A DNA stretch of 64,000 nt from Candidatus Heimdallarchaeota archaeon (GTDB lineage Archaea; Asgardarchaeota; Heimdallarchaeia; Heimdallarchaeales; Heimdallarchaeaceae), in assembly GCA_030603365.1 (NCBI GenBank), contig JAUVXV010000008.1:1-64000 (forward strand), given 5' to 3'. A program made the translations under genes and the position numbers. Shown piece after piece: positions 1,653-27,280 of the stretch (the stretch's first letter is position 1; each line of letters opens with the position of its first letter). The notes beneath the pieces are model-generated. The model saw nothing but the letters and a program-made list of their open reading frames with translations, did not search any database and had not been told where the DNA came from.

Positions 1653-4600
1653 TTAGAATCTTACTGTAGCTATCTTGTAAGCATCAAATACAGGTGTTAA
1701 GATACCTAGTTCTATAAATTCAAAGATTATAGGCAATCCTATCTCAATTCTAATACTATCAATTTCATCAAAAATTTTACTTATTGTTACATGATCATTT
1801 TCCATTATATATGTAATTAATTGCTTCTTGAGTCCTGTAAGTTCTGCGATTATATTTGTTTTATATGGAGAAATAATAAAAGGATAGAATATCCATAAAT
1901 GGATTTCCGTCATTATCTTCTCTGTTATCCCCTGGAGATTGATTCTAAAAATCTCTGTAGAACCATCCCAGTCTTCTGGTATTTGATTAAACATTTTAGC
2001 AAACCAATTACTAATGACTGTAAGCCTTTCTTCAATTTCTTCATTCAAATCAGCTTCAGAGAAAGTGTATATGGTAAATTGACCAGATTCAGTTCCAGTT
2101 ACTAAGAAGTTTTTGTATTGCAACCTTTTAACAGAACCAGCTTTATCACCTCTAAGTTCAACACCCATAGAGGATATAGCTGAAAGAAAACCAGTTATGA
2201 GTGAAGGATCTAAAGTTATTTCGGATCCTAAATCCATTTCATAGACAGGTAAACCAGTAACTTTGTGGACTATAATTATTTTTGTAATTGAAAGAACACT
2301 TTCATATAAACCATAAATTCTTGTGAATAAGGTTTTTTCTGCACGCTTATCTTTGTTCATCTTCCGTCTAATAAAATAAACCATAGGAGTAATAATAATA
2401 GCAGCACCAAAAATACCTATTACAACAAAAAGTATTGGAGGTATTTCTCCTTCGACAGGATTTAGTATAGAAATGGATTTAATAGCAATATCAATTTGAG
2501 ATACATATCCATCTTTGGATATGTTAATAAAAACATTAACAGTGGTTTCTTGGGGTTCATGAATCCTGAAAACTATATAATAAGTACCATCATTTTCATA
2601 CTTTGTAATTAGTTCAGCATCTTGAACATCAAATGAAACATCAAATTCAGCTCCAGAGATATTTTGAGAATGAATTGTATCAACATAAATGAACGCAATT
2701 GTTGTTTCATTACCATAATATAGCTCATCTTCAGAAGAAATTATCTCTATTAGAGTTGGAGTTTCTTGAATGTTCAATGTTACTTGAGTAGTAGCATTTT
2801 CTTGTTCATAATCTACAAAGAAACCTAGTTTTGAGACTGAAATTCTTATAGTATAAGATCCTACGACCAAATCTAATCCAAGACTATTGGAATAAAGTTC
2901 TAATTGCATATCATTTGTACCTGAAAATTCTCTAACTCCATATTCTAAAGTTTCAACTAGTAAAACATCATCTAGATAGAAATACATCTCATCAGGAATT
3001 ATTGGATTGTCTGTTTCATTTGATAAGTCTTCAACTGTAAATGGGATTATTGATTCTGCGTCATTATAATACGAGTTATAATTATAGGAATTGGGAGAAA
3101 TTTCAAAAGTATGATACACTTTTAAATTGAATGTTATTGAATGTGTTTCCAGTAGAAGCCCAGTTGCTGTAAGGGTTATAGAGTAATCACCTGATAAAAC
3201 ATTTATGGGGATGTCTAGTTCATAATATGGTCCAACATAATTCAATAAACCCGAAGTTCCCCAAGAAGTATTGTAAGCTACAGGTGCAGATATTATGGGA
3301 GTTCCTTCTCCTGTGAAAAATGGATCACTAATATTATTATACTGAATTTGAGCTATAATTCCCTGCAGATTTATCCTTTCAATTATGATAGAAGAATTGG
3401 ATATCATGCTTCCTCCTACTGTTTCTTCCCAACTGAAAGAAGCAGTTGTAGACTTCCTCACTGAGATTCTTTCCGAGTAGAAACCTATTTCAGTTCCATT
3501 CTTCCAATAACATACTACAGTCCAGAAACCTTCTGAATCACTGCCATCAATAGAGGGATCGAAAACTGTATTTATTGAATATTGACCAGGAAATTCTTGG
3601 CTTAATTGAAGAATTGTATATTCTGTAACATCATTAAAGATAATATTCGATGGAACATCTGTTTTTAGAGGAACGATGTCACCATTTGGATCATAGAGTG
3701 TGAAATTTAATTCACCAGAAAGAACATCAGAAGAAAGTAAATCTTTGATAAATACATCAGCTATTACTAAAGATCCATTCGTTCCAGTCGCATAAGTTCC
3801 ATCTGTTGTCCAAGACCCTAAATTGAAAATGTGTGTGTTCAGATTTAAATCATAAAGATAATTAGAACTTGTAGATGTGAAAGTAAGGTTTCCAGAAGCA
3901 TATTCTATTCCAGATAAAATTGTGTTTAAGTTGAAATTGTAACCTAGAGTACTTTTAACCCCAGAGATGGAAATTGAGTCATTAACTAGTAAATTGAAAG
4001 TCTGATTATTCCAATCACTAGGCGTTAAAAGCTCTTGAGTTCTTGCTGGATTAGTGTAATTTAAAAGATTCAGTATGCTGATATCCCATACTAAGGTCCA
4101 ATAAACTGTTTCTGCAAGATGAGTTGAGTTAGAAACCACATAATTGGATTTTGCTAATACAGCTTTATCAAAAATATATGTGTTATTCATAGTAATTTCT
4201 ACTGAATCATTGGAAATTAGAGTATGAATACCACTTCCTATTATTTGTTGAGTCAGAGAAGTTACAGATACAGAATTGTCTTCTAAAACAATATTAGAGG
4301 GGTCAGTAATTATTTGTGCTGTCCCATTAGAATATGAATGCTTTAATTCCACTAGCAACCCTCTTGTTTCATCACTAATTTCATTCCAAGAAACACCATC
4401 ATGATCATAACAGGGATAACCAGGGGTTACTATTTGTTTTCCTAACCAATCAAATTCATCATTATTATCATCGACAACTGTTAATTCTATCACTATGAAA
4501 TAAGTTCCTTTTTCTAATATTGCTTCTCCAGTCTTAGAAGTATTTAGAAAATCATAATAACCGTAATTCCCTACTGAACTTGGAGGGATAAGATTTGAGG

Positions 4601-5273
4601 AGTTATAAGGTCCATTAACCTCAACTGCACGAATATCACTTAAATTAGGTTCCCCTAATCCATTAGCTTTTACAACATAAAGCTCTATTTCATCATTACC
4701 TAAAGTTGGACCAGTGGTTACTAGGTTAATTTCAGCACTGTAAAATACACCATAATCCCAAATTATCTGAAAAGCTTGAGCTACTCGAATACTGCCACTA
4801 TCAAGACGAGCATGTTTATTTTCTACCGCTCCATCATAAACTGCATAAGAATCTTGTATTGAAGTAATTGTCATATCATACTGAAGATAATCAGCACTGA
4901 AATCTGAGGGTGGTTGAATGTTGAAGCTTTCTTCCCAATCATTACTAGAATTTAGAATAAGGTTATTAATATGAGATACAGACAATTCATCTCTTATAGA
5001 AAAGTTATCACCTACTCCTGTTTGAGTATCAATAGGTGTATAGTATAATTGAGGATTTTCCGGAAAAATTTCAGGATTTTCAACACTATAGATTTCATAT
5101 AAATCATTAGGATTTGTTATTTGATCAAGATATATGGAATTATCACTACCTAATGGATTTCTTCTGTGTATATCTGAAAGCACATAATTCGAAGCCAGAT
5201 TGATAATTACTAAAATGCATACTATATACTTTTTATACTTATTCTGACCCATAAAATGAAACCCCAATATCAA
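1653..5273 (-). CDS. Large single-pass surface protein: signal/TM, beta-rich (Ig-like) ectodomain, TM, cytoplasmic longin-like + winged-helix domain (paralogue 1)
   Basis: N-terminal hydrophobic segment, many NxS/T sequons, TM ILFVVIGIFGAAIIITPMVYF followed by RRK, then KIIIVHKVTGLPVYE..DPSLITGFLSAISSMG.E..G.VKRLQY, a typical Asgard longin-like pattern. Confidence 0.8.
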   Translation of the reverse strand: MILGFHFMGQNKYKKYIVCILVIINLASNYVLSDIHRRNPLGSDNSIYLDQITNPNDLYEIYSVENPEIFPENPQLYYTPIDTQTGVGDNFSIRDELSVSHINNLILNSSNDWEESFNIQPPSDFSADYLQYDMTITSIQDSYAVYDGAVENKHARLDSGSIRVAQAFQIIWDYGVFYSAEINLVTTGPTLGNDEIELYVVKANGLGEPNLSDIRAVEVNGPYNSSNLIPPSSVGNYGYYDFLNTSKTGEAILEKGTYFIVIELTVVDDNNDEFDWLGKQIVTPGYPCYDHDGVSWNEISDETRGLLVELKHSYSNGTAQIITDPSNIVLEDNSVSVTSLTQQIIGSGIHTLISNDSVEITMNNTYIFDKAVLAKSNYVVSNSTHLAETVYWTLVWDISILNLLNYTNPARTQELLTPSDWNNQTFNLLVNDSISISGVKSTLGYNFNLNTILSGIEYASGNLTFTSTSSNYLYDLNLNTHIFNLGSWTTDGTYATGTNGSLVIADVFIKDLLSSDVLSGELNFTLYDPNGDIVPLKTDVPSNIIFNDVTEYTILQLSQEFPGQYSINTVFDPSIDGSDSEGFWTVVCYWKNGTEIGFYSERISVRKSTTASFSWEETVGGSMISNSSIIIERINLQGIIAQIQYNNISDPFFTGEGTPIISAPVAYNTSWGTSGLLNYVGPYYELDIPINVLSGDYSITLTATGLLLETHSITFNLKVYHTFEISPNSYNYNSYYNDAESIIPFTVEDLSNETDNPIIPDEMYFYLDDVLLVETLEYGVREFSGTNDMQLELYSNSLGLDLVVGSYTIRISVSKLGFFVDYEQENATTQVTLNIQETPTLIEIISSEDELYYGNETTIAFIYVDTIHSQNISGAEFDVSFDVQDAELITKYENDGTYYIVFRIHEPQETTVNVFINISKDGYVSQIDIAIKSISILNPVEGEIPPILFVVIGIFGAAIIITPMVYFIRRKMNKDKRAEKTLFTRIYGLYESVLSITKIIIVHKVTGLPVYEMDLGSEITLDPSLITGFLSAISSMGVELRGDKAGSVKRLQYKNFLVTGTESGQFTIYTFSEADLNEEIEERLTVISNWFAKMFNQIPEDWDGSTEIFRINLQGITEKIMTEIHLWIFYPFIISPYKTNIIAELTGLKKQLITYIMENDHVTISKIFDEIDSIRIEIGLPIIFEFIELGILTPVFDAYKIATVRF

Positions 5274-5422
5274 TTACAGACTTAATTATGTTATTCTTTA
5301 CAGTTTCTTTATTCTTTATAAATTATTAGTTAATTTCTATTTAAAAAGTTATGAAAATGACTAACAAAAGGTAGAAATACTTTTTCACAATCTTTTATGA
5401 TGTAAAGTTTGATTTTTCATTC

Positions 5423-8400
5423 CTAAAAACGAACTGTAGCAATCTTATAAGCATCGTATTCAGGTTCTAGAATATTGCTTTCAATTAGTTCAAAGATAAC
5501 TGGTAATCCTTGTTCAAATGTGATATAATCAATATCATCAAAGAGACGACTGATTGTGATATTATCTATTTCTTGAATGTAATTAATTAATTTCTTCCTA
5601 AGACCTGACATCTGTTCTATTTCTATGGTTTTATTTGGTGCGACTCTAAAAGGATAGAATATCCATAGATGAATTTCTTTCATTATTTTTTCAGTTATTC
5701 CTTGTAGATTAAGTCTAAAGGGTTCTGTTGATCCATCCCAATCTTCTGGAATGTTACTGAAGAGCATAGCAAACCAATCACTAATTACAGTCAGTTTTTT
5801 CTCTATTTCTTCATTTAATTCTGCTTCTGAAAAAGTGTAAAGTGTAAATTGTCCTGATTTTGATGCTGTAACTTGGAAATCCATATATTCTACCCTTTTA
5901 ACGCTTGCAGTTTTATCACCTTTCATTTCCCCTCCAACACTTGAAACAGCTGAAAGAAATCCAGTAATTAAGGATGGGTCTAAGGTAATCTCAGATCCTA
6001 AATCCATTTCATACACTGGTAAGCTCGTTGCACTATGAACAATTATCAGTTTAGTAACAGACAGGATACCCTCATAGAAATTATAAATTTGAGTGAATTG
6101 AGATTTTTGAGCTCTTTTTTCTCTAATCACTTTCCTTCGAGCAAATAGTACTATAGGTATAATCAATATTACAGCTCCGATAATCCCAGCTATAATGAAG
6201 ATGTAAATTGGAAGTCCAGTTGGAGAAGGTGGTGGAGTCTGTATAATATTAATACTAATACCAACTAATCTAAAATCAGCTTTTGCTTCATATCCTACTT
6301 TAGAAACATTGACATAGATATTAAGAGATGATACTGATGGCTCTAAAGTTTTGACAATTATAGAATAAATTCCATTTACTTCAGGATCTAACCAAACTTC
6401 AACATTCGATATGTCGACTCTAACATCCACATCTGCATTTCTGATAAGCGTTGAGTGGTTAGTATCAAAGTAGCTAAACTTGATTATAGTTTGACTATTC
6501 TTATCTATTTCTTCTACAGTTTCTTCTATAGTGATGTCAGTTGCAATTGTTAATGTGTTTAAACTGAAACTTTCTAGAATATTTCCTTGACCTGTCGAAT
6601 CTATGAAATTGGTTTTGGTTATATTTACATCAAGATTATAGACACCAATTCCAAGATTTAATGATCCTGAATTAAATTCTAAAATAATTTTCCCATTAGA
6701 GATTTCTTGTGAATAGTCTGACTGGAGCAAAATTGTTTCGTCGATTTTTAGAATAATTTGATCAGGTTCAACTGGATTACTCATATTGGTTATATCAATT
6801 AAATCAAATCGAATAATGAAGTCATTAGTATAATTTGTGTAATAATCGTTTTTCTCTTTGTTTAACTGAAACACATGAAGAATTCTTACAGTAAACTGAA
6901 CCGTATGATTTTCTAAGAATTGACTTTGAGCACTTAAATCGATTGTATAAGTGCCTGCTTGAACATTAGTTAGAATCTCTCGTTCATAGGAAGACACACC
7001 AAAAGCGATGAGCCCTGTTTCTAACCAACCTGTTGAATAGGTTACTGATGCACTGGTAATTAATGTCCCATTTCCAGTGAAAAAGGGATCACTTATATTG
7101 TAATAACAAATTCGAACCTTTATTCCTTCACCATTAATTCTATCAATAGTTGATAGGCTATCATTAACCCAATTATCACTTCCCTCTATATCTTCCCATT
7201 CAAATTCAGCGAAGGTTGGCTTAACCACAGTTATTATTCTTGATGTGAAACCGACATCAGTTCCATTTTGCCAAAGATAAACTACAGTCCAATAACCCTC
7301 TTTGTCACTACCATAAACAGATGGGTCAAAGAGTGTACTTGCTGAATACTCTCCAGGTCCTGACTGAGTGGAGATTATTTGAGTGTAATAACTAATATCA
7401 TTATAGATTAATTCACTAGGTAAGCTGTTCTTAAAAGATATAATCTGCCCTTCAGGGTCAAAGAGTGTAAAATTCAGATTTCCATTTGTAACTTCACTAT
7501 CAATTGCTTCCTTAACATCTATAATGGAGTTCAAAGGAGAACCTTGATACCCTGTGGCATGTGTTTCATTTGTTTCCCAGTAACCTAAATTGAACGTGTC
7601 AGATGATTGTATAACTTCATAGAGAAGATTTCTACTTGTTGACTGGAAGGAAATATCTCCCTCTAGATAGCTAGAACCTGAAAGTAACTCAATCATGTTC
7701 AAAGTAAAAGTTCTGTCAGATTTTAAGTATGAAAGAGGAGTAGCATCATTTAGAAGTAAACTAAATGAGAAATCATTCCAAGTTTTTGGGATTGTAAAAG
7801 TTTGAGAGCGAGTAGGATTATCATATCCTGAAAAATCAACAGAAGAACTTAGCCACGAAATATTCCATGAAACACTATAATCGTAGAAAGTAGAATTTAT
7901 TGCAGTGTATGATGAACTTCCAACAAATGAACGGCTAAATGAGTAGGAGTTGTTCAGGTTTACAGCAACAGTAGTATTAGAAGTTAGTTCATGGGATCCT
8001 ATCCCACTGATTATTTGAGTTGTTGATGTTATATCAACTCCGTTATCTCTTAGCTGAATTGAAGTTGGGTCTTGATAAATTATAGGTGATCCGTTAGCAT
8101 AAGTTTGCATCAACTCAGGTGCTAAAATGAAATCTTTGTTTATAATTCCTGACCAGACTGTTCCATCATGAGTGTATGAATCAGTATATACTGAGCCTTG
8201 TTGTCCGCGCCAATTAAATCCATCACTATCAACTGCATCAAAACTAGATAAATTAGCTACAACATAATATTTCCCTGTTGTTAATACTACATTATGAAAA
8301 TCATAAAAGACGGTATTTCCTGGAGTACTTTCTGTTATCGGATTAATCGAACCAAAAGGATCATTTGTTGCATTTGAAAGAATGAAACCCATGTCTGGTT

Positions 8401-9022
8401 TTCCATCAACTATACTTGCTTTGACTAAAAACAATTCCAATTCATCCGCCCCTATTGCTGTTTTAATAATTAGGTAGATTTTTGCTCCAGAAAAAACTGC
8501 ATAATCATAAACTACATCAAAACTCTGTGCAACTCTAATATTGGTTGATTCAAGTACTTCGTCTTTATTATGTATAGTCTGTTGAGTAATAAATTCCTGA
8601 CTGGTAGTTATTGAAGTGATATTGTATTGTAAAATATCTTCCGAATAATCAGCTAGACCGCCTATACTATATGAATTTGTTAGACTATTATCAGAGTTTA
8701 ATGAAACAGATAAGGGGTGATGAACGTGCAAGTTGTCATCTACAAGAAAATCATTACCTGAACCTGACAAATCCAATATAGGATCAAAATTCAGTGAATT
8801 AGGATTATAAGATGGTTTTTCTCCTAAAAATATAGTATTAAAACTAATTTCTGCATCCTGTTTGAAGTCTTTATTCATGTTTACTGAAACAGTATCTGTA
8901 GAAATAGCATTAGTTATTCTGTTAGTAAAAGGAGAACTAGATAGAATGAAAAGTGAAATTATTATAATAGACTTTATCTTATCTCGATTTTTCCTAATCT
9001 CAAAACGATAAATAGATTCCAC
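5423..9022 (-). CDS. Large single-pass surface protein with cytoplasmic longin-like + winged-helix domain (paralogue 2)
   Basis: Same architecture as 1653-5273. Shares RVAQ.F, LG.W.T..T.A.G..G, NFTL.DP.G, FDPS..GSD.EG.WT, EMDLGSEITLDPSLITGFLSA and the C-terminal DAYKIATVRF. Confidence 0.8.
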   Translation of the reverse strand: MESIYRFEIRKNRDKIKSIIIISLFILSSSPFTNRITNAISTDTVSVNMNKDFKQDAEISFNTIFLGEKPSYNPNSLNFDPILDLSGSGNDFLVDDNLHVHHPLSVSLNSDNSLTNSYSIGGLADYSEDILQYNITSITTSQEFITQQTIHNKDEVLESTNIRVAQSFDVVYDYAVFSGAKIYLIIKTAIGADELELFLVKASIVDGKPDMGFILSNATNDPFGSINPITESTPGNTVFYDFHNVVLTTGKYYVVANLSSFDAVDSDGFNWRGQQGSVYTDSYTHDGTVWSGIINKDFILAPELMQTYANGSPIIYQDPTSIQLRDNGVDITSTTQIISGIGSHELTSNTTVAVNLNNSYSFSRSFVGSSSYTAINSTFYDYSVSWNISWLSSSVDFSGYDNPTRSQTFTIPKTWNDFSFSLLLNDATPLSYLKSDRTFTLNMIELLSGSSYLEGDISFQSTSRNLLYEVIQSSDTFNLGYWETNETHATGYQGSPLNSIIDVKEAIDSEVTNGNLNFTLFDPEGQIISFKNSLPSELIYNDISYYTQIISTQSGPGEYSASTLFDPSVYGSDKEGYWTVVYLWQNGTDVGFTSRIITVVKPTFAEFEWEDIEGSDNWVNDSLSTIDRINGEGIKVRICYYNISDPFFTGNGTLITSASVTYSTGWLETGLIAFGVSSYEREILTNVQAGTYTIDLSAQSQFLENHTVQFTVRILHVFQLNKEKNDYYTNYTNDFIIRFDLIDITNMSNPVEPDQIILKIDETILLQSDYSQEISNGKIILEFNSGSLNLGIGVYNLDVNITKTNFIDSTGQGNILESFSLNTLTIATDITIEETVEEIDKNSQTIIKFSYFDTNHSTLIRNADVDVRVDISNVEVWLDPEVNGIYSIIVKTLEPSVSSLNIYVNVSKVGYEAKADFRLVGISINIIQTPPPSPTGLPIYIFIIAGIIGAVILIIPIVLFARRKVIREKRAQKSQFTQIYNFYEGILSVTKLIIVHSATSLPVYEMDLGSEITLDPSLITGFLSAVSSVGGEMKGDKTASVKRVEYMDFQVTASKSGQFTLYTFSEAELNEEIEKKLTVISDWFAMLFSNIPEDWDGSTEPFRLNLQGITEKIMKEIHLWIFYPFRVAPNKTIEIEQMSGLRKKLINYIQEIDNITISRLFDDIDYITFEQGLPVIFELIESNILEPEYDAYKIATVRF

Positions 9023-9151
9023 TCTCTTTTACTCTGATAGATACTTTATGTAATTTGAACTTAAAATTCTTTCCAATATTCTAATATTATCTATATAAAA
9101 GAGATTAACAGTAAAAAAATACTTAATCAAACCTTCTAAAATGTCCGTATT

Positions 9152-12100
9152 TCATCCTGTAAAGGATGAGAATTGCATTCTTTCTAGAATACCTTTGTTT
9201 ACAAGTTTAAATACACTAGTTAGTGTATCTTCCATCGGGGAATCATGGAATTTTGTGAGAAGTTCGCTAATAGCTGCTTGTTCTTTTTTCTTCATGTAAA
9301 GAGCAATTCTTACATCGTTCTTTTCTAGCTTCTTTATTTCTCCAGCTTTTGATTGATTGAATTTTAGAGGAAAATAGAGCCATATATACAAAGAATCTGC
9401 AACTTTATCTTGAATTAGATGTCTCTTTTTCTGAAACATCTCAACTCTTCCATCCCACATATCTTCTTTAATTTGAAAACTATATTCAAACCACATTATT
9501 AAATCGAATAGTCTTACTTGAACTTCTTTGATTATGTCTTCAGTTGAAAAGAGGAAAAGAGTGTAAGTATCTGATCGGGCACTATTAACTACAAAGTTTC
9601 TATATTCTAGTTTTTTAATTTCACCAGCTTCTGTTCCACTTATTGTTTTCCCCATTTGAGTTAAAGCCGCTAAGAAACCTGATACTAGAGTAGATTCGAC
9701 AAAAGATTTTTCACCGATATCTACTTCGAAAATTGGTAAACTTGTTTCAGTATGAAGTATTAGAACTTTCTTCATAGCTAAAACACTATCTAGTAGACCA
9801 ACAACTTTAGATTTATCTTGAATATCCATTATTTCAGCTGGTCTCTTTCTATATGATATTGCTATAGCCATAATAGCTATAATGGTTATTATCATGAATG
9901 CAGCTACTGCAATTATGATAATTGCATACAATGGTAGTGGAAGCTGTGCAGAAGCTGTTATTTCAACTGAAAAACTGACTGATATTGCTTCATCTATGTA
10001 GGAAGATTTGAAATTCTCTTTTGTAATATCTAATGTAATGTTTGCTTTTCCTGAAGTTATCCCATAATCTGCTAACTTTACTGTAACATAAACTATACTA
10101 CTTTGGTTTGAAACAGAATAAAAATCACTTGAAACTGGGTTATTATTGATTTTTAGTGATATTGTATCAGGAAGAATTGAACCTTTCGTTGGATCTGTTT
10201 CATTAATTACACTGAATGCTAATATCACTTCTTCTGAAGTATTGGTTTCAATGCTTTGTTGCACAGGAAGTATACTATATACATTGAATATCTCAATTTG
10301 AATATCTACCATCTCTTGAATACTCCAAGAATCATTCAACACTAAAGTAACGGTTCTCAAACCAGCTGTTGTTAATATTGGAATTGCTCCACTAAACTCA
10401 AGTGGATATTCGTCTAGATATCCTTCAAGATTCCAACTAGTTAAGTAACCTATACTAGCATTTTCAACTGGTGAACCGAATTCAGTGAAGAAAGGCTCAC
10501 TATTAGAAAAGAACGAGGCTTTAACGTTTAGAGCATCCCCATTCCTTCTGAGTATTGTCTGAGAGTCATCATTTGTCCAGATATCATTTGAGGGGAGTGT
10601 TTCCCAAGAAGCATTAAAGATTATAGAAGCGTGGACAGATATTCGGATGGAATATATTCCGATTTCTGTTCCATTTTCCCAGAACACAAAAGCAGTCCAA
10701 TACCCAACAGGATCACTTCCATAAACTGAAGGATCTAAAGAAATGTCTGAGGTAAATATGCCTAGACCACTAGAAGTAATTCCAGAATGTGAGTAAGATG
10801 AACTATCTGTATAAGACAGATTTGAAGGGAAAGAAGTCTTGATAGGAAGGATAGAACCTACCGGATTAAAGAGAGTAAAATTTGTTACACCACTGATTTC
10901 ATTGTTCTTTATATTTAATGTAGCAAAAATAGTGTCTCCTTCATAACCATATGCATTAATTCCATCGTTAGTCCAATATCCTAAAGTAAATTCTTCGGTT
11001 AGTTCACTTCCATCCGAGAGTGTTAACTGTTGTACATAATTAGGACTACTCGTATAAAGATCGATAACTCCTGGTTCAGTATTATTACCAAGTTGAAGAA
11101 GGTATCCTTCAACATTTTTTGAGATGATACTAATAGATGATAAATTATAATTTGCAGTAAAAACATCATTCCAATCCGTAGGTACAATAAGAAGTTGTGT
11201 TCTATTTAGGTTTGAATATGGAGAATAATCAATATAGCCAATATTCCAAGTAAAATTCCACAAAATGGAATAAGAATCGAAAGATGAATTAAAAGCTTGG
11301 TAGGTTGAAGATGCTGTTTTCTCATCATAGAATGTGTACCTATTAACTAAATCAATCTCAATTGAAGTATCTGAGGTTATGTGATGTAATCCGGTAGAAG
11401 AAATAGAATCTGTAAAAGTATTTACTATTACAGAATTATCTTCAAGTAATATCCCAGTCAAATCAGTGAAAACCATTGCTGAACCACTAGCATTCGAAGG
11501 TAAAATATCTACAATCATTGTATGATCTATAGAAATCAAAGAAGACCAAATAAAGCTATCATTTCTATAATAGGTGTCTCCACCGAAACCAGAACTTTTT
11601 AAGTGTCCTCTCCACATAAATTTCTTTTGAGAAGTTGGATCCCTTTCAGTTAAATTTGCTACGATGAAATAAAATCCTTGTTCTAATAGAACATTAGTAA
11701 AATCGTAGTAAGAAGTACTTCCAGGGGAAGGTAGTGGATTAGCAGTGTTATATGGATCATTAACATCACTTGAAATTATATTACTCATATTTGGTTTTCC
11801 AGTGGACTCTTCTGCTTTAACGAGTAATAGTTCTAATACATTCAAACCTGTGTGACTAACTGTACCAAAAAGGTCCAAATTAAGGTAAGCTCCATAGAAA
11901 GTTGCGTTTGACCAAGGAATTTCAAATCCTTGTGCTATTGTTATTATTGGATCTATAATTACTTGTTCATCAGCAAAGAGATTTTCGATAGTATAGTTGT
12001 CCCTTTTAGCTCTAACTTCTGTTATTCCATAGTATAAAAACTCAGCTGAAAAACCTGTTAAAGGGTCAATTGTATAATCAGATGCGAATTTATCATCTAT

Positions 12101-12406
12101 ATCATCATATGTAAGATTCAAGCTTAACTCATGGTCTACTGTAATTCTATCCCTTGCAGTAAAGCTTGAACCTGGGTTTGACACATTTGTTATTGGATTA
12201 TAATCATTCAATGAGTAATATGTCGTATCAACAGAATTCTCACTTAAGAGCAGCTCATTTGAATCAGGAAAAACATCAGAATTCGGAACAATATTAGCTG
12301 TTATTACGTGTTCAGATTGTACTGCTATAGTACCATAAAGCATAGTCATAATTAGTATACTTACAGTAATCTTTCTTGAAACGTTCTTTCTCCATGAGCT
12401 TCTCAT
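9152..12406 (-). CDS. Large single-pass surface protein with cytoplasmic longin-like + winged-helix domain (paralogue 3, more divergent)
   Basis: IAQGFEIPW, LGYWTNDG..AYGYEG, LDPSVYGSDPVGYWT, TM LYAIIIIAVAAFMIITIIAIMAI, then KVLILHTETSLPIFE..STLVSGFLAALTQMG..GEIKKLEY and IWLYFPL. Confidence 0.8.
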   Translation of the reverse strand: MRSSWRKNVSRKITVSILIMTMLYGTIAVQSEHVITANIVPNSDVFPDSNELLLSENSVDTTYYSLNDYNPITNVSNPGSSFTARDRITVDHELSLNLTYDDIDDKFASDYTIDPLTGFSAEFLYYGITEVRAKRDNYTIENLFADEQVIIDPIITIAQGFEIPWSNATFYGAYLNLDLFGTVSHTGLNVLELLLVKAEESTGKPNMSNIISSDVNDPYNTANPLPSPGSTSYYDFTNVLLEQGFYFIVANLTERDPTSQKKFMWRGHLKSSGFGGDTYYRNDSFIWSSLISIDHTMIVDILPSNASGSAMVFTDLTGILLEDNSVIVNTFTDSISSTGLHHITSDTSIEIDLVNRYTFYDEKTASSTYQAFNSSFDSYSILWNFTWNIGYIDYSPYSNLNRTQLLIVPTDWNDVFTANYNLSSISIISKNVEGYLLQLGNNTEPGVIDLYTSSPNYVQQLTLSDGSELTEEFTLGYWTNDGINAYGYEGDTIFATLNIKNNEISGVTNFTLFNPVGSILPIKTSFPSNLSYTDSSSYSHSGITSSGLGIFTSDISLDPSVYGSDPVGYWTAFVFWENGTEIGIYSIRISVHASIIFNASWETLPSNDIWTNDDSQTILRRNGDALNVKASFFSNSEPFFTEFGSPVENASIGYLTSWNLEGYLDEYPLEFSGAIPILTTAGLRTVTLVLNDSWSIQEMVDIQIEIFNVYSILPVQQSIETNTSEEVILAFSVINETDPTKGSILPDTISLKINNNPVSSDFYSVSNQSSIVYVTVKLADYGITSGKANITLDITKENFKSSYIDEAISVSFSVEITASAQLPLPLYAIIIIAVAAFMIITIIAIMAIAISYRKRPAEIMDIQDKSKVVGLLDSVLAMKKVLILHTETSLPIFEVDIGEKSFVESTLVSGFLAALTQMGKTISGTEAGEIKKLEYRNFVVNSARSDTYTLFLFSTEDIIKEVQVRLFDLIMWFEYSFQIKEDMWDGRVEMFQKKRHLIQDKVADSLYIWLYFPLKFNQSKAGEIKKLEKNDVRIALYMKKKEQAAISELLTKFHDSPMEDTLTSVFKLVNKGILERMQFSSFTG

Positions 12407-17179: not shown

Positions 17180-17377
17180 ATGAAAGGCACAATCAAGAGG
17201 ATCATGTATGATAGAAACTTTGGTTTTATCCAGACAGAAGACGAAGATAAAGATATCTTTTTCCATCAATCTGGTGTAACTGTTGAATTCGGTGATCTAA
17301 AAGAAGGAGATACTGTAGAATTCGATGTTGAAGATACTGATCGAGGACAACAAGCAGTCAATCTCAAGACAGTATAA
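17180..17377 (+). CDS. cspA: Cold-shock domain protein
   Basis: MKGTIK...RNFGFI (RNP1), DIFFHQS (RNP2), LKEGDTVEFDVE...RGQQAVNL. SD GGAGG. Confidence 0.95.
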   Translation: MKGTIKRIMYDRNFGFIQTEDEDKDIFFHQSGVTVEFGDLKEGDTVEFDVEDTDRGQQAVNLKTV

Positions 17378-19576: not shown

Positions 19577-20446
19577 TCAACTCTCAGAAGTATTTTCTTC
19601 AAGTAATATAGGTTTTTTGAACATATTTTTTCTATCAAAGAAAATGATCGTCAAGAGGATAATGAAGTAAATTATTCCCCCCCAGATAGGTCGATGGTAT
19701 TTTATAAACACTCTGTTTGCTAGATTATGCATTACATGAAAAATAATCATTATAGGTAAATTCTCTGTTTTAAGATAAATCCAGACATATATACATGAAA
19801 TTACAGTTACAGTAAAAACAAACTGTGGAAAGGTCTCCCAAGATCTACCTCCATAAACATACTGCAATAGATGCCACACAGCCCAAATTACGCCAATAAT
19901 AATTCCAGAGACAGTAGGTCGATATTTTTTGTTCATTTTAGGAACAGCAAATCCTCTCCATCCTGGTTCCTCAGCTATTCCAGCAAAAATAATATTGGTT
20001 ATTATCACTGAAAAATCTATACCCCATATACTTACATCAAAATATGATAGATTGTAAGGATTACCAAATATCAGATTAATAATTATTGGAATTGAATATA
20101 CGATTATGGGCATAAAAAATGCCATTAAGTACCAATAGTACTTTACTTTGAATTTGATAAATTGCTTAAAGAACTTCTTTAGTCCTTCTTTCCCTTCAGA
20201 ATACCAGATTGTTAATATTGCTGCAAAAAATGGTCCAAAAGATTGAAGTCCTACGAAGATATAACAGAGGACACCAATAAAACTATCAAAACTTCTCATT
20301 TGATAGATGAAACTAAGAGGGTATATGAACAAGAACAACATCCCCCATGTGATAAAAAATGAGAGAATAAAGAAAATTAGGAGAGGTGGAAACTTACCAT
20401 GATTTTCTTGATCACTTATTTCGTTCCCATCAATCATCTGAGCCAC
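19577..20446 (-). CDS. CPBP (CAAX protease/Abi) family intramembrane metalloprotease
   Basis: EEPGWRGFA, WAVWHL and FHVMHN motifs in a multi-TM protein. Confidence 0.9.
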   Translation of the reverse strand: MAQMIDGNEISDQENHGKFPPLLIFFILSFFITWGMLFLFIYPLSFIYQMRSFDSFIGVLCYIFVGLQSFGPFFAAILTIWYSEGKEGLKKFFKQFIKFKVKYYWYLMAFFMPIIVYSIPIIINLIFGNPYNLSYFDVSIWGIDFSVIITNIIFAGIAEEPGWRGFAVPKMNKKYRPTVSGIIIGVIWAVWHLLQYVYGGRSWETFPQFVFTVTVISCIYVWIYLKTENLPIMIIFHVMHNLANRVFIKYHRPIWGGIIYFIILLTIIFFDRKNMFKKPILLEENTSES

Positions 20447-21085: not shown

Positions 21086-21190
21086 TTGACGTAGTCTTTA
21101 AAAGTTAGGTAAATTTCTGATTAACAGTTTTTGATTAAAACAAGATACTAAAAGTGTCAACAAAGAAATAATTTACGGAGGAATTCCTTT
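21086..21190 (+). promoter_or_regulatory. Structured 5' leader of second cold-shock gene with SD-sequestering hairpin
   Basis: TTGAC(21086)/GTCAA(21156) closes a long stem containing AGTTAG/CTGATT. GGAGG-AATT-CCTTT hairpin at 21177-21190 covers the SD and part of the TTG start. Confidence 0.5.
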
Positions 21191-21386
21191 GAAAGGTGTT
21201 ATTAAAAGAGTAATGTACGACCGAAATTATGGTTTTATCAATGTTGAAGGAGAAGAAAAAGATATTTTCTTCCACAGTTCCGGATGCAAAGCAGATTTCC
21301 AAGATCTAAGAGAAGGTGTTGAAGTCGAATTTGATATTGAAGAAACCGATAGAGGTAAACAAGCTACAAATGTAGTTACTGCATAA
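21189..21386 (+). CDS. cspA: Cold-shock domain protein (paralogue of 17180)
   Basis: RNYGFI, DIFFHSS, LREG.EVEFDIE.TDRGKQA. TTG start with GGAGG SD. Confidence 0.95.
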   Translation: MKGVIKRVMYDRNYGFINVEGEEKDIFFHSSGCKADFQDLREGVEVEFDIEETDRGKQATNVVTA

Positions 21387-21529: not shown

Positions 21530-22780
21530 TCAAGTAAAGCTTATTTGTATATAGAGATCGATTTCTTGATTTTTCCTTAAAACTCCACTGACATAGAAAG
21601 TTTCGTAATTACGGATATTCTGTTCCTTTAGAGTTAAATTTAGTTCAACTTCTTCAGGGTCTTTTTTGTCTATTCTCCAGAAAGTAGGTGGAAATTCTAA
21701 ATCATGCGTGTAACCTTTGTTTTTAATTATTGTAAGAATAGTATCAACTGTTGTTGTATTTGGGAGTTTAAATTTCTTTATCACAGCAGCATTTGGTCCA
21801 CACAGAACACATTTTTTATTTGGAGGTTTTTCAAAGTAGAAAAATTTACCAATTAATCCATTATAAATTGTGTACTCATTATTTACTGATCCTAGTTTAA
21901 CTCCTTTTACATGATGCAAGAGTTTCAATGCTTCTTGAGATTGAAGAGATGCTATTATTGCATTTATTGTTATAATTGTGGGATCATGCTGATCAACCAT
22001 TTTTACTACTTCATCTATTGTAAAAATGCTCTCCTTTGGAAAATGTTCCTTAGTAAGCTTATTTGCATAGGCTAAAACAATTCTCATTTCTTCAAGGACA
22101 GTTGTATCAGGTGGTCGATTATGTTTTGATTCAAAATGTAACTGCCCTTTAAGTAAACAATGCGACCTTTTTCTTGGGATTCCAACTAGTGTACAAGCTG
22201 CTAAAGTTTCTCTTTCTCTTTCTGCTTGAGGGTCACATTGAAGGCATGCATTTTTTCCGGGTAAATAGGTATAAACATGACCATAATATGTTACTGTTCC
22301 ACCATCTATCAATGGTTTCCTGTAATGAACTGCTCTTCTATTCAGTTCACTTCTTGCTATAACTGAATCTAGACCCGAGATTAGAAGATCTGCATTAACA
22401 TAAATTTGAGGATCTATATCTTCCAGATTTGAATGATGCCATATATATCTACAATATGGGTTAATTTTTCTTAGTGTCCTTGCTGCAACTTTAGATTTTG
22501 GCTCTCCTTCATCAGCGTCAGAAAACAAGATTTGTCTGTTCAAATTCGAATACTCTATGATATCTAAATCTATCAGATGTAAAGTCCCCACACCAGCCAT
22601 TGCAAGATTCTTAGCTACTTCAGTACCTAATCCACCTATACCTACAATAACTACTATTGAATCTTTCAATGCTTTTTGATTCCATCCAGGTAATCGTAAT
22701 TGTCTATCAAATCGTTTTCTTTCTTCGGAAGAGAAAGATTCATCAAAAAAATTAGACTGTTGTTTAGTATTTTTATCCAT
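21530..22780 (-). CDS. Ubiquitin-like activating enzyme E1 (ThiF fold with Uba3-like catalytic-Cys and C-terminal ubiquitin-fold domains)
   Basis: RFDRQ, GIGGLG, D.D.IEYSNLNRQ.LF, CLQC and CVLC zinc pairs, catalytic AACTLVGIPR..SHC, C-terminal beta-grasp-like extension. Confidence 0.9.
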   Translation of the reverse strand: MDKNTKQQSNFFDESFSSEERKRFDRQLRLPGWNQKALKDSIVVIVGIGGLGTEVAKNLAMAGVGTLHLIDLDIIEYSNLNRQILFSDADEGEPKSKVAARTLRKINPYCRYIWHHSNLEDIDPQIYVNADLLISGLDSVIARSELNRRAVHYRKPLIDGGTVTYYGHVYTYLPGKNACLQCDPQAERERETLAACTLVGIPRKRSHCLLKGQLHFESKHNRPPDTTVLEEMRIVLAYANKLTKEHFPKESIFTIDEVVKMVDQHDPTIITINAIIASLQSQEALKLLHHVKGVKLGSVNNEYTIYNGLIGKFFYFEKPPNKKCVLCGPNAAVIKKFKLPNTTTVDTILTIIKNKGYTHDLEFPPTFWRIDKKDPEEVELNLTLKEQNIRNYETFYVSGVLRKNQEIDLYIQISFT

Positions 22781-22889
22781 TAGTATACAGCTCTGTGATT
22801 TTTGTTTTATACTCCCATAGAATATTGCATTATATTAAAAAATTAAAAGGAAAGGAGAAACTATTTCGTCCAATCCCAAGAATATTTTT

Positions 22890-23252
22890 TTACTTACCAG
22901 CTGTTGATACAGGAATAAGTAGGACAGTATCTCCGTCTTCGACACCATAGTCTTCAAATGTATCATCAGGATCACATGTTCTACCTGCATGAGATAGATG
23001 AAATTCGTCTGGAGGTAATCCAAAGATTTGACTTACAGTGTATTTGATATCCCCAATTGGTGCATCAGTAGCTACAACTAGTTTTTCTTGTTTTGGACTT
23101 GGTCCGATTGTACTTTGGAAATAGACACTGATCTTTTTACCAGCAGGAGTCTTAGACTTTTCTGGTGTCTTAGAAATAATGTCTTCTTCTTCAACTTCCT
23201 CTTCTTCTTCCTCAAAGGATAATTCTTCAAATTCTTCGCTCATTTTTATCAT
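22890..23252 (-). CDS. Ubiquitin-like protein with acidic N-terminal extension, C-terminus ...STAG-K
   Basis: IGDIKYTVSQIFGLPPDEFHLSHAGRTCDPDDTFEDYGVEDGDTVLLI matches the ubiquitin beta-grasp pattern. Directly upstream of the E1. Confidence 0.88.
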   Translation of the reverse strand: MIKMSEEFEELSFEEEEEEVEEEDIISKTPEKSKTPAGKKISVYFQSTIGPSPKQEKLVVATDAPIGDIKYTVSQIFGLPPDEFHLSHAGRTCDPDDTFEDYGVEDGDTVLLIPVSTAGK

Positions 23253-23485
23253 TCCTATTTTAACACATCTTATATTTAATTAATAAGCATATTAAAAATT
23301 TCCTTTTTGGGTATAAAAAACATTCTTATTTAGAAAAATAAATAACAAAAATAGTTTGAAACTATCTAAAAGACTAATAAAAGGAAAAAAGATAACCTAA
23401 ATGACAGATATATATTGTAAAGAGGAGCAAGAAATTCTAATTTTGCGATAGAAAATGAAAGGCAAAGAGTGAGTGTGACTTACTG

Positions 23486-24217
23486 ATGAAAGATAAAAAC
23501 AAGCAAAAACGGCATTCATCAAAGAAACCTAAGCAGAAATTCCCTATAGATTCAAAGATACCAAGACAAAAATCTCCTTCTGATAAAATTCCTAAACAAC
23601 GAATTGGGGATGATAGTCTACTTCCTCCTAAAAGACAGAGATCAAGAAAAGAATCATCAGCTCCCAGTAAGTCCAGATTAAAACAAGATGAAATAAGGAA
23701 GTCTAACAAAGGAATTGAAAAAGAAAGAATAGTAACTAAGAAACCTAAAGGAGAGAGATTTGTAGATCAACCAAAACAAAGCAAAGGAATTCCAAAACAA
23801 AAAATTCCCAAAACTAAAATTCCACAACAAGATAAACTAGAGAAAACCAAGGAAAGGAATATTATTCCTGATGACAGTGAATCAAGAAAAAAAGAGAAGA
23901 AGGAATCAACACCACCAAGAAGAGAAAATTTTAGAGAGATTAAGACACTAGATTCGAAAGCCTTGGAGAAAACTGAGAGGGAAAAAAGAGAATCTTCTCC
24001 TCCTCCGTCAAACAATAAGGATCAATTTTCTGAAACTGAAAAACATGATTCAAGAACGGTTCCAAAAGAAGAGAAAGTAAGAGAGAAGAGGGAAAGAGAA
24101 GCTCCAGTTACAAGAGAAATTGAGGAAAAACCAAAACACAAACAACCAACTCAGAAGATTCCAAGCCAGAAATATCCTCAACAGACAAAAAAACCTAAAC
24201 AAAAGAAACCTAGGTAA
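23486..24217 (+). CDS. Lys/Arg/Glu/Pro-rich intrinsically disordered protein with P-x-Q-K-(I)-P repeats
   Basis: 243 aa open frame, almost no hydrophobic residues. Repeats KPKQKFP, IPRQKSP, IPKQRI, IPKQKIPKTKIPQQ, PTQKIPSQKYPQQ, KPKQKKP. Confidence 0.7.
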   Translation: MKDKNKQKRHSSKKPKQKFPIDSKIPRQKSPSDKIPKQRIGDDSLLPPKRQRSRKESSAPSKSRLKQDEIRKSNKGIEKERIVTKKPKGERFVDQPKQSKGIPKQKIPKTKIPQQDKLEKTKERNIIPDDSESRKKEKKESTPPRRENFREIKTLDSKALEKTEREKRESSPPPSNNKDQFSETEKHDSRTVPKEEKVREKREREAPVTREIEEKPKHKQPTQKIPSQKYPQQTKKPKQKKPR

Positions 24218-24239
24218 TTCCCTTCAGAGAGACTTTTTT

Positions 24240-24833
24240 TCATACAAATAAAGTTAACAGAGCTGAATAGAAGTATACAATTCCAAAAATCATTAAAAAT
24301 AGATTTTCTAGATAAAACAATGTGATCAGAATATATATTGCAGGTATTATTAGCATTAATAGAAAACCAAAAAGTTTTGGGGGAATACCTTTTTCACTTG
24401 TACCTTTCATTCTTATGAATGGATATCTGATGAAAGTCCTAAATAGCAAGAAATTACTGAAGATGTAATAAGGTAAAAGGAAGAAATCAACAATTGTGAT
24501 AAAAAAATCATAAGATGAACTACCAATATTAAATGTGCTTGTTGAAATTATAGCTGAATCAAGATCATTTATTCCTAACAATATTTGTGCTAAAACGATT
24601 ATTACTGGGACTAAAGGAACTATTAATACAAAGAAAACTTCGTTGAACGTTGCATTATGTTTTAAGTAATATATACTTCTAAATGTGAAGAAAAGTGTCA
24701 AAAATGCGAAAATTGCAATAAAAATATATAACTTACCAAACTCATTGTTTTCTTCTATGAAATAGTATATAGATACACCTACCAGTGTCAGAGACACAAG
24801 AAATGCAGCAGTGAGTTGTGATATTGTTCTCAT
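24240..24833 (-). CDS. Polytopic membrane protein, RING-less paralogue of the TM domain of 24902-25984
   Basis: About 6 TMs. YYLKHNA vs HYKKHNA, and DFFITIVDFFLLPYYIF vs EFFFNLISISLLIPSIIF. Confidence 0.75.
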   Translation of the reverse strand: MRTISQLTAAFLVSLTLVGVSIYYFIEENNEFGKLYIFIAIFAFLTLFFTFRSIYYLKHNATFNEVFFVLIVPLVPVIIVLAQILLGINDLDSAIISTSTFNIGSSSYDFFITIVDFFLLPYYIFSNFLLFRTFIRYPFIRMKGTSEKGIPPKLFGFLLMLIIPAIYILITLFYLENLFLMIFGIVYFYSALLTLFV

Positions 24834-24901
24834 GTTAACACCAAGTTTCTTCAGTATGGTTCTATTTTAACTATTTTTTAAAATATTGGCATATCTTACA
24901 T

Positions 24902-25984
24902 TTATAGTTTTTCAATTATCTTCTCAATATATATTCGTATTGTAATTCGATATTTTGGATTATTAACATATCGTGTTGAGATAGGTTGATTACACCTTGC
25001 ACATAGTCTGGACTTCTGAAACCAGTTAAGAAATTCGTCTTCATGTGCAGGATATTTACAGTTAGGACATAAAATAATTTTTCTTGTATCTTTCTTATCA
25101 AAATCCATATAGCAAATTATACATTGCATCTCTTCTTTCTTAGGTGTTCCAATTGGGAACATACTTTTGCTTACTGTTGTGATTGTTTTAGTAGTCTTAG
25201 TTCTTCTTCTTGTTGTAGTAACATCTATACCTGGATCAACTCTTGCTCTTGTTGAAACGCTCCTTTGTCTATTTCTTGAAGATACGGAAACATCTCCTCT
25301 TCTCTGAGAGCTAGAAGCCCTTGAGGAAGCTGTTCGAGTAGATGCACGTCTTGTAGTTACTTTAACTTCTCTTCTTGATTTATTTATTGCAACATAAACA
25401 AAGTATCTGAATATATAGACTATATACAATATCACGAAAATAAAACAAACAAAGTCAATTTGTCCATTAATAAAGAAGCCAATTAAAAAGGTTAAAACGA
25501 TCAAACTGTGAAATAAGAAAGGAAGTGTCCTTCCTCTTTTTATTTTTCGATTTATAGCCATTCCAGGCCATTTTCCTGAATAAAAATTACTGAAGAATAT
25601 TAAGAAAATAATTGAAGGAATTAAAAGTGATATTGATATCAGGTTAAAGAAAAACTCAATAGTTCCTCCTCCTGACAGATTAGTAGTTGTCGCGAAAATT
25701 TCAGCTGCCCAAGCTTCTGGAGAGATATAATTTCCCATTAACATTACAGAGAAAGGTAAAATCAAGAATTGGCTACTGGCCAAAATAGCATTGTGTTTCT
25801 TATAATGCTGTCTTTCTAGAATATATTTGAGAGCTACAATGAAGTACAATGTAATAAAGAAAATAGTTAGAGTTACTGGTCTATCACGCTGGATAATTGC
25901 ATAAAGAGTACCTATAGTTGAACCAATAATTGCAATTGCTAAGTAAGTTTTCCAGTTATTTAATTCCAATTTTAAGCAACTCAA
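24902..25984 (-). CDS. Polytopic membrane RING-finger protein (putative E3 ligase)
   Basis: About 6 TMs, R/S/T-rich linker, then CIIC-x14-CPNC-x4-H-x2-E-x3-W-x6-CARC. Confidence 0.85.
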   Translation of the reverse strand: MSCLKLELNNWKTYLAIAIIGSTIGTLYAIIQRDRPVTLTIFFITLYFIVALKYILERQHYKKHNAILASSQFLILPFSVMLMGNYISPEAWAAEIFATTTNLSGGGTIEFFFNLISISLLIPSIIFLIFFSNFYSGKWPGMAINRKIKRGRTLPFLFHSLIVLTFLIGFFINGQIDFVCFIFVILYIVYIFRYFVYVAINKSRREVKVTTRRASTRTASSRASSSQRRGDVSVSSRNRQRSVSTRARVDPGIDVTTTRRRTKTTKTITTVSKSMFPIGTPKKEEMQCIICYMDFDKKDTRKIILCPNCKYPAHEDEFLNWFQKSRLCARCNQPISTRYVNNPKYRITIRIYIEKIIEKL

Positions 25985-25989
25985 ATGTT

Positions 25990-26712
25990 TTAGTCATTCT
26001 GATTCAACTTAGTTTTCATAAACATAGTAATTGATTCATAACTTGCTTCACTGCTCATTCCTTGTATCTCACAAGACAGTTCATAGTAATTCCTTTTATC
26101 GTCATGAATACGGAACACACCTACACCAAAATTTGCAGGAGTAATCATTAGAGGATCGATGACCAATGCTATCGATTTATTCCAAAAAGTTTGATATCTC
26201 AAATGTGTACTATAGTCATCATCACTAAGAAAGGGAGTATAGCTTGGATGAGAATGTGCCCAGCCTATAATAAAATGATTACTATCTTTTTTATTGAAAA
26301 TTTCTGTAAAGATTCTTTGATCAACTATTTCAACGCTCACTGCATCACCTTGATCAACTGGCCAGTAATCTTCAACAAATATCTGTTCTAAAGGTGTATC
26401 TTCATTTCTGATTTTTCCTGTTAACAGACCAATAACTTCCACCCAATCCTTTTTTGGTACGTTCTTGTTAGCATAAGTTAGGGCATGTTTTGCAAGTTTA
26501 AGGTAAGCTTTTGGGTTCAAAGCAATTTCTGATCTTGGTTTAATTTGAAGATCATCTTCTGAAATTGTTTCTATACTAATACTCTCTGTATCTGTTACCT
26601 TTTCTTCTATAATATTGTCTATCTTGTAAAGTTCAAGCGCTTTTTCTAAAGCTTCGACTTTTTTAAGGAGTATCTTGTACTCCTCTGGAAAATCGTTTTC
26701 TTCGTTTGTCAT
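25990..26712 (-). CDS. JAB/MPN+ (JAMM) metalloisopeptidase, Rpn11/Csn5-like
   Basis: EVIGLL.G, GWAHSHPSYTPFLS..D (JAMM H-x-H-x7-S-x2-D), ALVIDP. N-terminal coiled-coil-like segment. Confidence 0.92.
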   Translation of the reverse strand: MTNEENDFPEEYKILLKKVEALEKALELYKIDNIIEEKVTDTESISIETISEDDLQIKPRSEIALNPKAYLKLAKHALTYANKNVPKKDWVEVIGLLTGKIRNEDTPLEQIFVEDYWPVDQGDAVSVEIVDQRIFTEIFNKKDSNHFIIGWAHSHPSYTPFLSDDDYSTHLRYQTFWNKSIALVIDPLMITPANFGVGVFRIHDDKRNYYELSCEIQGMSSEASYESITMFMKTKLNQND

Positions 26713-26749
26713 TTTTTGAACTCCAAAGTTTATTTTCTAGTTTTTCTAA

Positions 26750-27280
26750 TTACCAGAATGATTTTGCATATTTCTTGCTAATTGTGCTTGCTTTCTTTAT
26801 GAACTTCTTTTTATCATTTAAGAACTCCAATGCTGCCTCTTTATTGAAAACATCTTTAGGATTCACATAAGCTCCTTCAATGTTAAACATTGCAAGAATT
26901 GAGTGAATTACAGTAGTGATATTCTTTGCCGGTGACCATCCATCATGATTTCCGATTAATTCATTATCAACTAAAGCTAGACAGATGTTACGCTTTTTGG
27001 GATATTCTTTAGGATTTGGCCAAAAATTGGGATGCCAAATTGGAGTGTGAAGTCGTACAAATGGAGGTTTGTAGGGGTAATTTGGACCGAAGAATAGCTC
27101 AAGTTTATATTTTCCTCCTACATATGGAGTCCCTTTAGGACCGACAAAACCTATAGCTATGTGATCCATCGATTTCTTTTTAGCTGGGAATGCTTTAACT
27201 TGAGAGATTATTCCTTCTCTATGAAGTTTTCTTAGTGCATTATAATCTTTGATTACTCTTTGTTTTCTAATTTTTATCAC
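26750..27280 (-). CDS. Ubiquitin-conjugating enzyme E2 (UBC fold)
   Basis: GPKGTPYVGGKY.L, YPYKPP.V, IWHPN...ICL (catalytic Cys), WSPA..I.TVI.SI, FN.EAA. Confidence 0.93.
   Translation of the reverse strand: MIKIRKQRVIKDYNALRKLHREGIISQVKAFPAKKKSMDHIAIGFVGPKGTPYVGGKYKLELFFGPNYPYKPPFVRLHTPIWHPNFWPNPKEYPKKRNICLALVDNELIGNHDGWSPAKNITTVIHSILAMFNIEGAYVNPKDVFNKEAALEFLNDKKKFIKKASTISKKYAKSFW

Follow-up and report, generated by a model that had tools for sequence, protein, structure and literature searches.

What kind of protein modification is specified by an archaeal gene cluster that joins the enzymes of ubiquitin-like conjugation to a RING protein embedded in the membrane? Such a cluster lies in Candidatus Heimdallarchaeota archaeon, within positions 1 to 64,000 of contig JAUVXV010000008.1 (assembly GCA_030603365.1; this 64,000-nucleotide stretch is hereafter called the window). 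The host belongs to the AB_125 group of Heimdallarchaeia; its close relatives carry the label Heimdallarchaeota, AB_125 among them. The cluster encodes a ubiquitin-like protein (Ubl), an E1, an E2, a JAMM metallopeptidase, a RING protein with multiple transmembrane (TM) segments (TM-RING), a RING-less paralogue of the latter, and a Lys-rich disordered protein. [quoted passage not shown] The dedicated module with a membrane RING stands, and ERAD ancestry and ESCRT sorting do not. We consider it probable, though far from secure, that the locus encodes an orthogonal, SUMO-like, motif-directed modifier system with a membrane-tethered E3, whose acceptor lysines are suggested by a recurrent motif.

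All seven open reading frames (ORFs) that had been listed were recovered at the same positions and on the same strands (Table 1), and the catalytic Cys residues of E1 and E2 and the JAMM motif are intact, as had been claimed. Together they make up a complete, dedicated conjugation module in which the membrane RING protein is the sole E3 candidate. In the E1, the catalytic Cys is accompanied by GxGxxG at 47 and by the two CxxC zinc pairs; its best matches in the PDB are UBA1 (7.5e-36) and UBA3 (2.5e-35), with UBA5 at merely 6e-14. The E2 carries a 7-residue insertion ahead of its catalytic Cys, and its motifs are kept in homologues having an intact active site. The enzymatic hallmarks of archaeal E1/E2/RING operons of the C. 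subterraneum type, i.e., E1 adenylation motifs and Cys, E2 HPN and Cys, and the JAMM metal site, are all present, and the genes form a linked unit, as in archaeal ubiquitylation operons. A promoter scan at the locus performed no better than chance level.

The tag most likely starts at Met4 (position 23243). The preliminary description recognized the Ubl but missed that it terminates in Ala-Gly rather than Gly-Gly. Among its homologues, 39 terminate at the Gly of the STAG motif and 18 bear variable tails of 1-5 residues; because of this pattern, we read this Gly as the conjugating residue, exposed through trimming by JAMM. When aligned with ubiquitin, the Ubl has Ser at the I44 equivalent in 54 of 57 copies, R, V or I but never Lys at the K48 equivalent (57/57), and never Arg at the R72 equivalent. 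The Gly-Gly end and I44 patch that mark the tags of archaeal operons are thus both missing. Tandem pairs of STAG Ubl paralogues occur both in family f3 and in Hodarchaeales (L056, L057, L058, L061-L064, L066, L106, L107). The second tandem Ubl of f3 has no SKTP arm and could cap chains, and in Hodarchaeales a small ORF lies between the two.

The same genome encodes a canonical ubiquitin, ending RTKGG-S, that adjoins its own E1, ubiquitin E2 variant (UEV) and ESCRT genes in a separate cluster (ubiquitin-E1-UEV/Vps28-ESCRT; C1:324-332 kb). Binding by a Heimdall UEV requires the I44 equivalent of ubiquitin (PMC9192718), so the Ubl studied here would be poorly read by UEV; from the sequences, we infer that it is charged solely by its own E1. 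The proposal of ESCRT-bound sorting loses its footing on these grounds, as the tag has no I44 patch and ESCRT is linked to the other, canonical ubiquitin. A second E2 (C1:144264-144731) lies away from the canonical cluster, amid apparent queuosine-pathway genes. The tail of the tag and the reported occurrence of an Asgard Ufm1 (PMC12962969) had also brought UFM1 into consideration. This identity was rejected: the tag matches the ubiquitin family, the E1 is nearer UBA1/UBA3 than UBA5, and PF03671 (Ufm1 family) had no match in this genome at E<=0.1.

The TM-RING protein most likely starts at 25969 (355 amino acids, record P0210) and not at 25984, where the longest ORF begins, because close homologues begin MELNN or MDLNN. 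TM-RING and its paralogue have six hydrophobic segments each, and AlphaFold models show six helices there. Loops 2 and 4 of these six-helix proteins are basic, which places both termini and the RING in the cytoplasm; conserved residues of the membrane domain sit on cytosolic loops. The multi-TM RING of the preliminary description was confirmed, but the Glu at RING ligand 6, found in 52 of 52 homologues, had been missed. The linker between the two domains is the lowest in lysine among 51 basic disordered windows of the proteome (K/(K+R) 0.12 vs median 0.75). This depletion persists over the 52 homologues (K 383, R 864; genome K/(K+R) 0.66), and the Arg excess is not driven by GC content, because Arg codons are mostly AGA. 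Lysine-free flexible regions shield San1, Slx5 and Hrd1 from self-tagging (PMC13696103); by analogy, the lysine-poor linker lends independent, indirect support to an active E3 role for TM-RING.

Archaeal RINGs had been taken to be small soluble proteins; this premise is too narrow, since TM segments are predicted in 10 of the 14 RING proteins of this genome. Besides TM-RING, nine RING proteins that are unlinked to this locus carry His or Glu at ligand 6 and have TM segments by prediction (1-7 each); their positions include C13:153523-154902, C11:103593-105891, C9:104522-105229, C9:128262-129212, C3:62346-63626, C3:136552-137073, C13:313647-314966 and C16:4625-5557. Database names for TM-RING homologues are "hypothetical" or equivalent.

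According to structure prediction, the 6-TM RING protein binds the E2 via its variant RING. The modeled complex scored 0.74 (best of three controls, 0.32); 51 of 78 solved pairs reached this mark, as did 2 of 108 mismatched ones. The model may owe its pass to a resemblance to E2-RING complexes of solved structure. At least 94% of contacts are shared between runs, with partner pLDDT (predicted local distance difference test) of at least 82. The modeled contacts join I290/W321 of the RING to P69-Y70 and S116-P117-A118 of the E2 (E2 loops 4 and 7); equivalent surfaces have been shown to be necessary in the C. subterraneum cascade (PMC5654768). The preliminary description had staked its proposal on the RING binding or stimulating the E2; the model predicts a binding interface, so this ground for rejecting the proposal did not arise.

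Candidate acceptor sites were suggested by a short motif shared by the tag and its neighbor. The preliminary description noted a divergent gene for an intrinsically disordered protein. This gene is indeed present, and our data add that it belongs to the system: it encodes a co-inherited Lys-rich protein with K-[T/I]-P (KxP) motifs, found in 36 of 54 fetched stretches and frequently head-to-head with the Ubl gene. Just three proteins in the whole genome satisfy the Lys-rich KxP criterion. In Lys/Pro-rich neighbors, K-[T/I]-P was observed 161 times vs 24 expected, and 145 of 208 motif sites lie in the terminal fifths of these proteins. The Lokiarchaeia protein has a coiled-coil middle and retains SKTP repeats at both ends. 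KTP likewise occurs in 51 of 60 acidic N-terminal arms of Ubls, where the residue before [TIV]P is Lys 102 times vs 12 for other residues. The simplest reading of these patterns is that KxP would be a SUMO-like acceptor consensus, serving both chains and a dedicated substrate. Nothing points to membrane proteins as the substrates, as first proposed; the best candidate is this soluble Lys-rich neighbor.

The module is widespread in Asgard archaea but not universal. A TM-RING orthologue was detected in 115 of 301 Asgard genomes, from nine families, in a single copy in nearly all, and the family distribution of the tag and E2 essentially matches it. Named carriers of module clusters include Hodarchaeales, Ca. 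Hodarchaeum mangrovi, Lokiarchaeota, Borrarchaeum and L. ossiferum; in the latter, a cultured organism, the operon is intact (E2, UYP46709.1, NEF87_002994). The module was not found in other Asgard families (0/76, 0/19, 0/11), and a direct check of five Asgard genomes that are complete or nearly so also failed to find it; it is therefore dispensable. Linkage in other genomes, on which the preliminary proposal also depended, was borne out. In 34 stretches from Heimdallarchaeia, the E2, JAMM and TM-RING genes lie side by side wherever the contig permits, and Ubl-E1-E2-JAMM-TM-RING was present in 20 of 20 loci picked by E2 alone, with two TM-RINGs interrupted by a gap or contig end. This looks like the ancestral order; in the host's family, the Ubl-E1 block has been relocated downstream. 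The trees of E1 and TM-RING largely agree with each other and with taxonomy; the exception is three small families that fall inside a Lokiarchaeia family. The RING-less paralogue is confined to Heimdallarchaeia among genomes searched: an exhaustive search with its profile gave 21 clusters in all, and the named ones checked were Heimdallarchaeota.

Table 1. Features of the conjugation locus (window coordinates)
Feature	Position	Strand	Basis
E2 conjugating enzyme	26750..27280	-	PF00179 UQ_con E=6e-26; HPN83-85, catalytic Cys100
JAB/JAMM metallopeptidase	25990..26712	-	PF01398 E=5.5e-12; E92, H153, H155, S163, D166
TM-RING (six TM segments), 355 amino acids, candidate E3 of the membrane	24902..25969	-	hydrophobic segments, AlphaFold model, predicted E2 interface
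Six-helix membrane domain of TM-RING, N-in/C-in, beta-hairpin on the outer side between TM3 and TM4, not assigned to a known family	25397..25948	-	positive-inside rule, AlphaFold
Disordered Ser/Thr/Arg-rich cytosolic linker of TM-RING, lysine-poor, 54-residue K-free stretch	25157..25396	-	pLDDT<50 for residues 208-266
Variant RING, C-x2-C-x14-C-x2-C-x4-H-x2-E-x3-W-x6-C-x-R-C (C4-H-E-C2)	24992..25123	-	invariant columns; RING/U-box fold matches
RING-less 6-TM paralogue	24240..24833	-	hhalign to TM-RING; AlphaFold model
Lys-rich disordered protein, K-[I/T]-P repeats near both ends, candidate substrate	23486..24217	+	co-inheritance with module
Ubl, ubiquitin family, acidic N-terminal arm, ends STAG-K	22890..23252	-	PF00240 E=5e-7
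Two tandem SKTP motifs in Ubl arm, Lys28 and Lys34, candidate chain-acceptor lysines	23145..23174	-	
STAG C-terminal motif of Ubl, putative conjugating Gly, then single Lys	22896..22907	-	STAG in 56/57 Ubls
Single-chain E1, UBA1/UBA3/UBA2 type, catalytic Cys196	21530..22780	-	PF00899 ThiF E=1.8e-56

From these observations, we propose a second Ubl pathway that would operate at the cytoplasmic face of the cell membrane, orthogonally to the canonical ubiquitin-ESCRT system of Asgard archaea. JAMM would remove any tail after STAG and later detach the tag. By established chemistry, for which the residues are intact, the E1 would adenylate the Gly, form a thioester at Cys196, and pass the tag to Cys100 of the E2. 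The 6-TM RING protein, predicted to dock to the E2, would serve as the E3, and its likely partner subunit in Heimdallarchaeia would be the paralogue. The tag would be placed on lysines in the linear motif [S/T/E/Q]-K-[T/I]-P, the putative acceptors lying in the N-terminal arm of the tag itself, which would give SUMO-like chains, and at both ends of the co-encoded Lys-rich protein. The output would most likely be membrane-localized signaling or assembly, not K48-type degradation.

Several points weigh against this proposal. Its basis is sequence and predicted models, and the counts pool related genomes that are not independent. Pfam RING matches are weak (E 0.006-0.016, under the cut-off), RING ligand 6 is a Glu, and some RINGs act as scaffolds, not ligases. 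The Arg-rich linker also resembles the RNA- or lipid-binding RS (Arg-Ser) regions of a few other proteins in the genome and could have such a role itself. By the strict criterion, the KxP protein was found in only 36 of the 54 fetched stretches, some of which are short, and KxP could be a docking or phosphorylation site, not an acceptor; the phospho-Thr version is weakened by the occurrence of Ile variants.

Among other explanations, a convergent ERAD analogue fares best, though we regard it as unlikely. Here, the TM domains would sense misfolded or unassembled membrane proteins, the RING would tag them, and Cdc48 or the proteasome would remove them. Like Hrd1, gp78 and RNF145, TM-RING has a multi-pass N-terminal anchor, a lysine-poor disordered linker and a cytosolic C-terminal RING, in the Hrd1-like order (PMC13696103), its inheritance is single-copy and housekeeping-like, and the genome has two Cdc48 genes. 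However, Cdc48 is unlinked to the locus, and the neighborhood keeps no Cdc48, protease or substrate gene. The RING-H2 (C3H2C3) ligands of the Hrd1 class are replaced by C4-H-E-C2 in all 52 homologues, and a tag capable of K48 chains, as used by that class, is not seen in any of the 57 copies; the I44 equivalent is also missing. The conserved TM-domain residues on cytosolic loops and the failure to find the module in several complete or near-complete Asgard genomes argue in the same direction. DER1/Derlin was not found in this 89% complete genome.

A stress or antiviral conjugation system akin to bacterial Bil/Bub, with the membrane protein as the sensor, appears improbable. The single-terminal-Gly Ubls with variable N-terminal fusions recall BilA/BubA, terminal-Gly Ubls matured by JAMM and Ubl fusions are common to both (PMC11601596), HerA-Ubl and other Ubl fusions occur in Lokiarchaeia-side loci, and the presence of the module is patchy. 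Yet the module is single-copy, with trees largely following taxonomy; its flanks are ordinary and variable, with no defense or mobile genes seen; and PADLOC yielded only generic E1 matches. Bil/Bub systems have no RING E3, Bub forms Tyr/Ser oxyesters, and Bub operons tend toward defense or mobile regions (PMC11601596), whereas the present locus has Cys-based E1 and E2 enzymes plus a RING.

True ancestry (homology) to the membrane E3s Hrd1/gp78/RNF145 or Doa10/MARCH6 is quite improbable. The TM domains of TM-RING and the RING-less protein are paralogous to each other (hhalign 96.6%, E=5.9e-10). Foldseek searches with both TM models gave no match at E<=0.001. With VIA and the higher-confidence paralogue model, HRD1 was absent from the top 50 and Doa10 was matched over a 59-residue hairpin only. 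An Atlas fold search of the TM models gave TM<0.5 and no feature match, and in a profile search of PDB sequences the TM domain matched no ERAD protein. These fold-search negatives do not establish a new fold for the 6-TM domain. Doa10/MARCH proteins have an N-terminal C4HC3 RING-CH before the TM segments, whereas the RING described here is C-terminal with Glu at ligand 6; zinc ligands and tag differ from those of Hrd1/gp78/RNF145 as well. With no convincing link to Hrd1 or Doa10 in either TM fold or sequence, and no significant match to Derlin, ERAD ancestry of the module is unsupported. Least likely of all is that the RING is a non-catalytic scaffold that merely localizes an E2 selecting substrates itself (as Ubc9): Glu at zinc ligand 6, Asn rather than Arg following the last Cys, and a linear motif that would permit transfer without an E3 fit this idea. 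Against it stand the lysine-poor linker, a hint of exposure to charged E2, the retention of the Ile and Trp that bind E2, and the occurrence of His or Glu at ligand 6 in other RINGs of the genome.

How does the proposed SUMO-like module compare with known systems? Enzyme classes and operonic cascades of this kind were known already (PMC5654768, PMC9192718, bioRxiv 10.1101/2023.07.25.550441). The C. subterraneum operon (Ub, E1, E2, srfp RING, Rpn11; PMC5654768) is alike in its operonic Ubl, Cys-E1, HPN-type E2, RING, JAMM and predicted E2-RING contact residues. However, its RING is a small soluble RING-H2 protein, whereas here it is part of a 6-TM protein with a C4-H-E-C2 RING; the present tag ends AG, has no I44/K48/R72 and carries an acidic SKTP arm; and the TM paralogue and KxP protein are additional. 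The Asgard ubiquitin-ESCRT cluster (PMC9192718; bioRxiv 10.1101/2023.07.25.550441) shares organisms and enzyme classes with the present locus, which is separate and has its own E1, E2 and tag, without ESCRT/UEV neighbors or an I44-type patch. SUMO offers an analogy: it too is an orthogonal Ubl with a UBA2/UBA3-type E1 and a flexible N-terminal arm bearing a short Lys motif, which here recurs in a candidate target. SUMO has a Gly-Gly end and the psi-K-x-E motif, in contrast to the AG end, K-T/I-P motif, single-chain E1 and membrane E3 of this module. Prok-RING_1 (PF14446) has the same C-x2-C-x4-H spacing, and its matches were weak: 15.6 bits on TM-RING vs a cut-off of 29.1, and hits in 11 of 33 homologues (best E 1e-4). 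It differs from the present RING, with its Glu at ligand 6, and no bacterial homologue of the TM domain was seen. Bacterial PF14446 members have TM helices and occur in neighborhoods of Ub/E1/E2/JAB genes; prokaryotic Ubl operons with a membrane RING are thus not without precedent.

The surroundings of the module vary. In family f20, a HerA-like ATPase with a C-terminal Ubl (SRAG or STAG end), possibly a conjugatable ATPase, adjoins the operon (L115:14072-15814, minus strand; L116:911-2719, plus strand). Upstream of the operon in Lokiarchaeia is a protein anchored by two TM segments whose Ubl domain has no terminal Gly; its neighbors are a winged-helix regulator and a second STAG Ubl (L121:12701-13489, L122:4144-4938, L124:13076-13876, L128:4392-5201, L131:4243-5037, L133:12597-13394). 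Elsewhere, a CxxC-containing N-terminal domain is fused to a short-tailed Ubl of the STAG type (L114:11770-12660, L126:9703-10470, L126:10765-11658), and in two Lokiarchaeia loci a soluble protein of ~690 amino acids with a C-terminal RING lies past the KTP gene (L114:2285-4372, L125:13432-15507). In the window itself, two similar cold-shock-type ORFs (17180-17377, 21189-21386) surround a CAAX-protease (Rce1-like) gene (19577-20446), a set not noted beside the operon in other genera examined. Farther away, 1653-12406 (minus strand) encodes three tandem proteins of ~1100-1200 amino acids with signal-like N-termini, probably surface proteins.

Searches of the literature gave no description of the locus, of its AG tag, or of membrane RINGs from Asgard archaea (Burroughs et al. 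2011, 2012 being outside coverage), and no proteomic evidence for the module was found in the published supplementary data examined. In archaea, only the ubiquitin toolkit had been found, with SUMO and Ufm1 being eukaryote-specific (PMC4327156), and parallel modifiers with private E1/E2 pairs and membrane-placed E3s are usually seen as eukaryotic innovations. Our broadest suggestion is a tentative one, held with less than even confidence: Asgard archaea, including Hodarchaeales, may run two orthogonal Ubl cascades, one of canonical ubiquitin serving ESCRT and the other of a so far undescribed Ala-Gly modifier with an integral-membrane E3 of unclassified 6-TM fold, a K-T/I-P consensus, SUMO-like arm chains, and a dedicated co-encoded substrate. 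The module is open to direct testing, having small soluble parts, named candidate acceptor lysines, and an intact operon in cultured L. ossiferum. If true, a second co-inherited cascade in Heimdallarchaeia and Lokiarchaeia would place both features, private modifier pathways and membrane-placed E3s, before eukaryotes.

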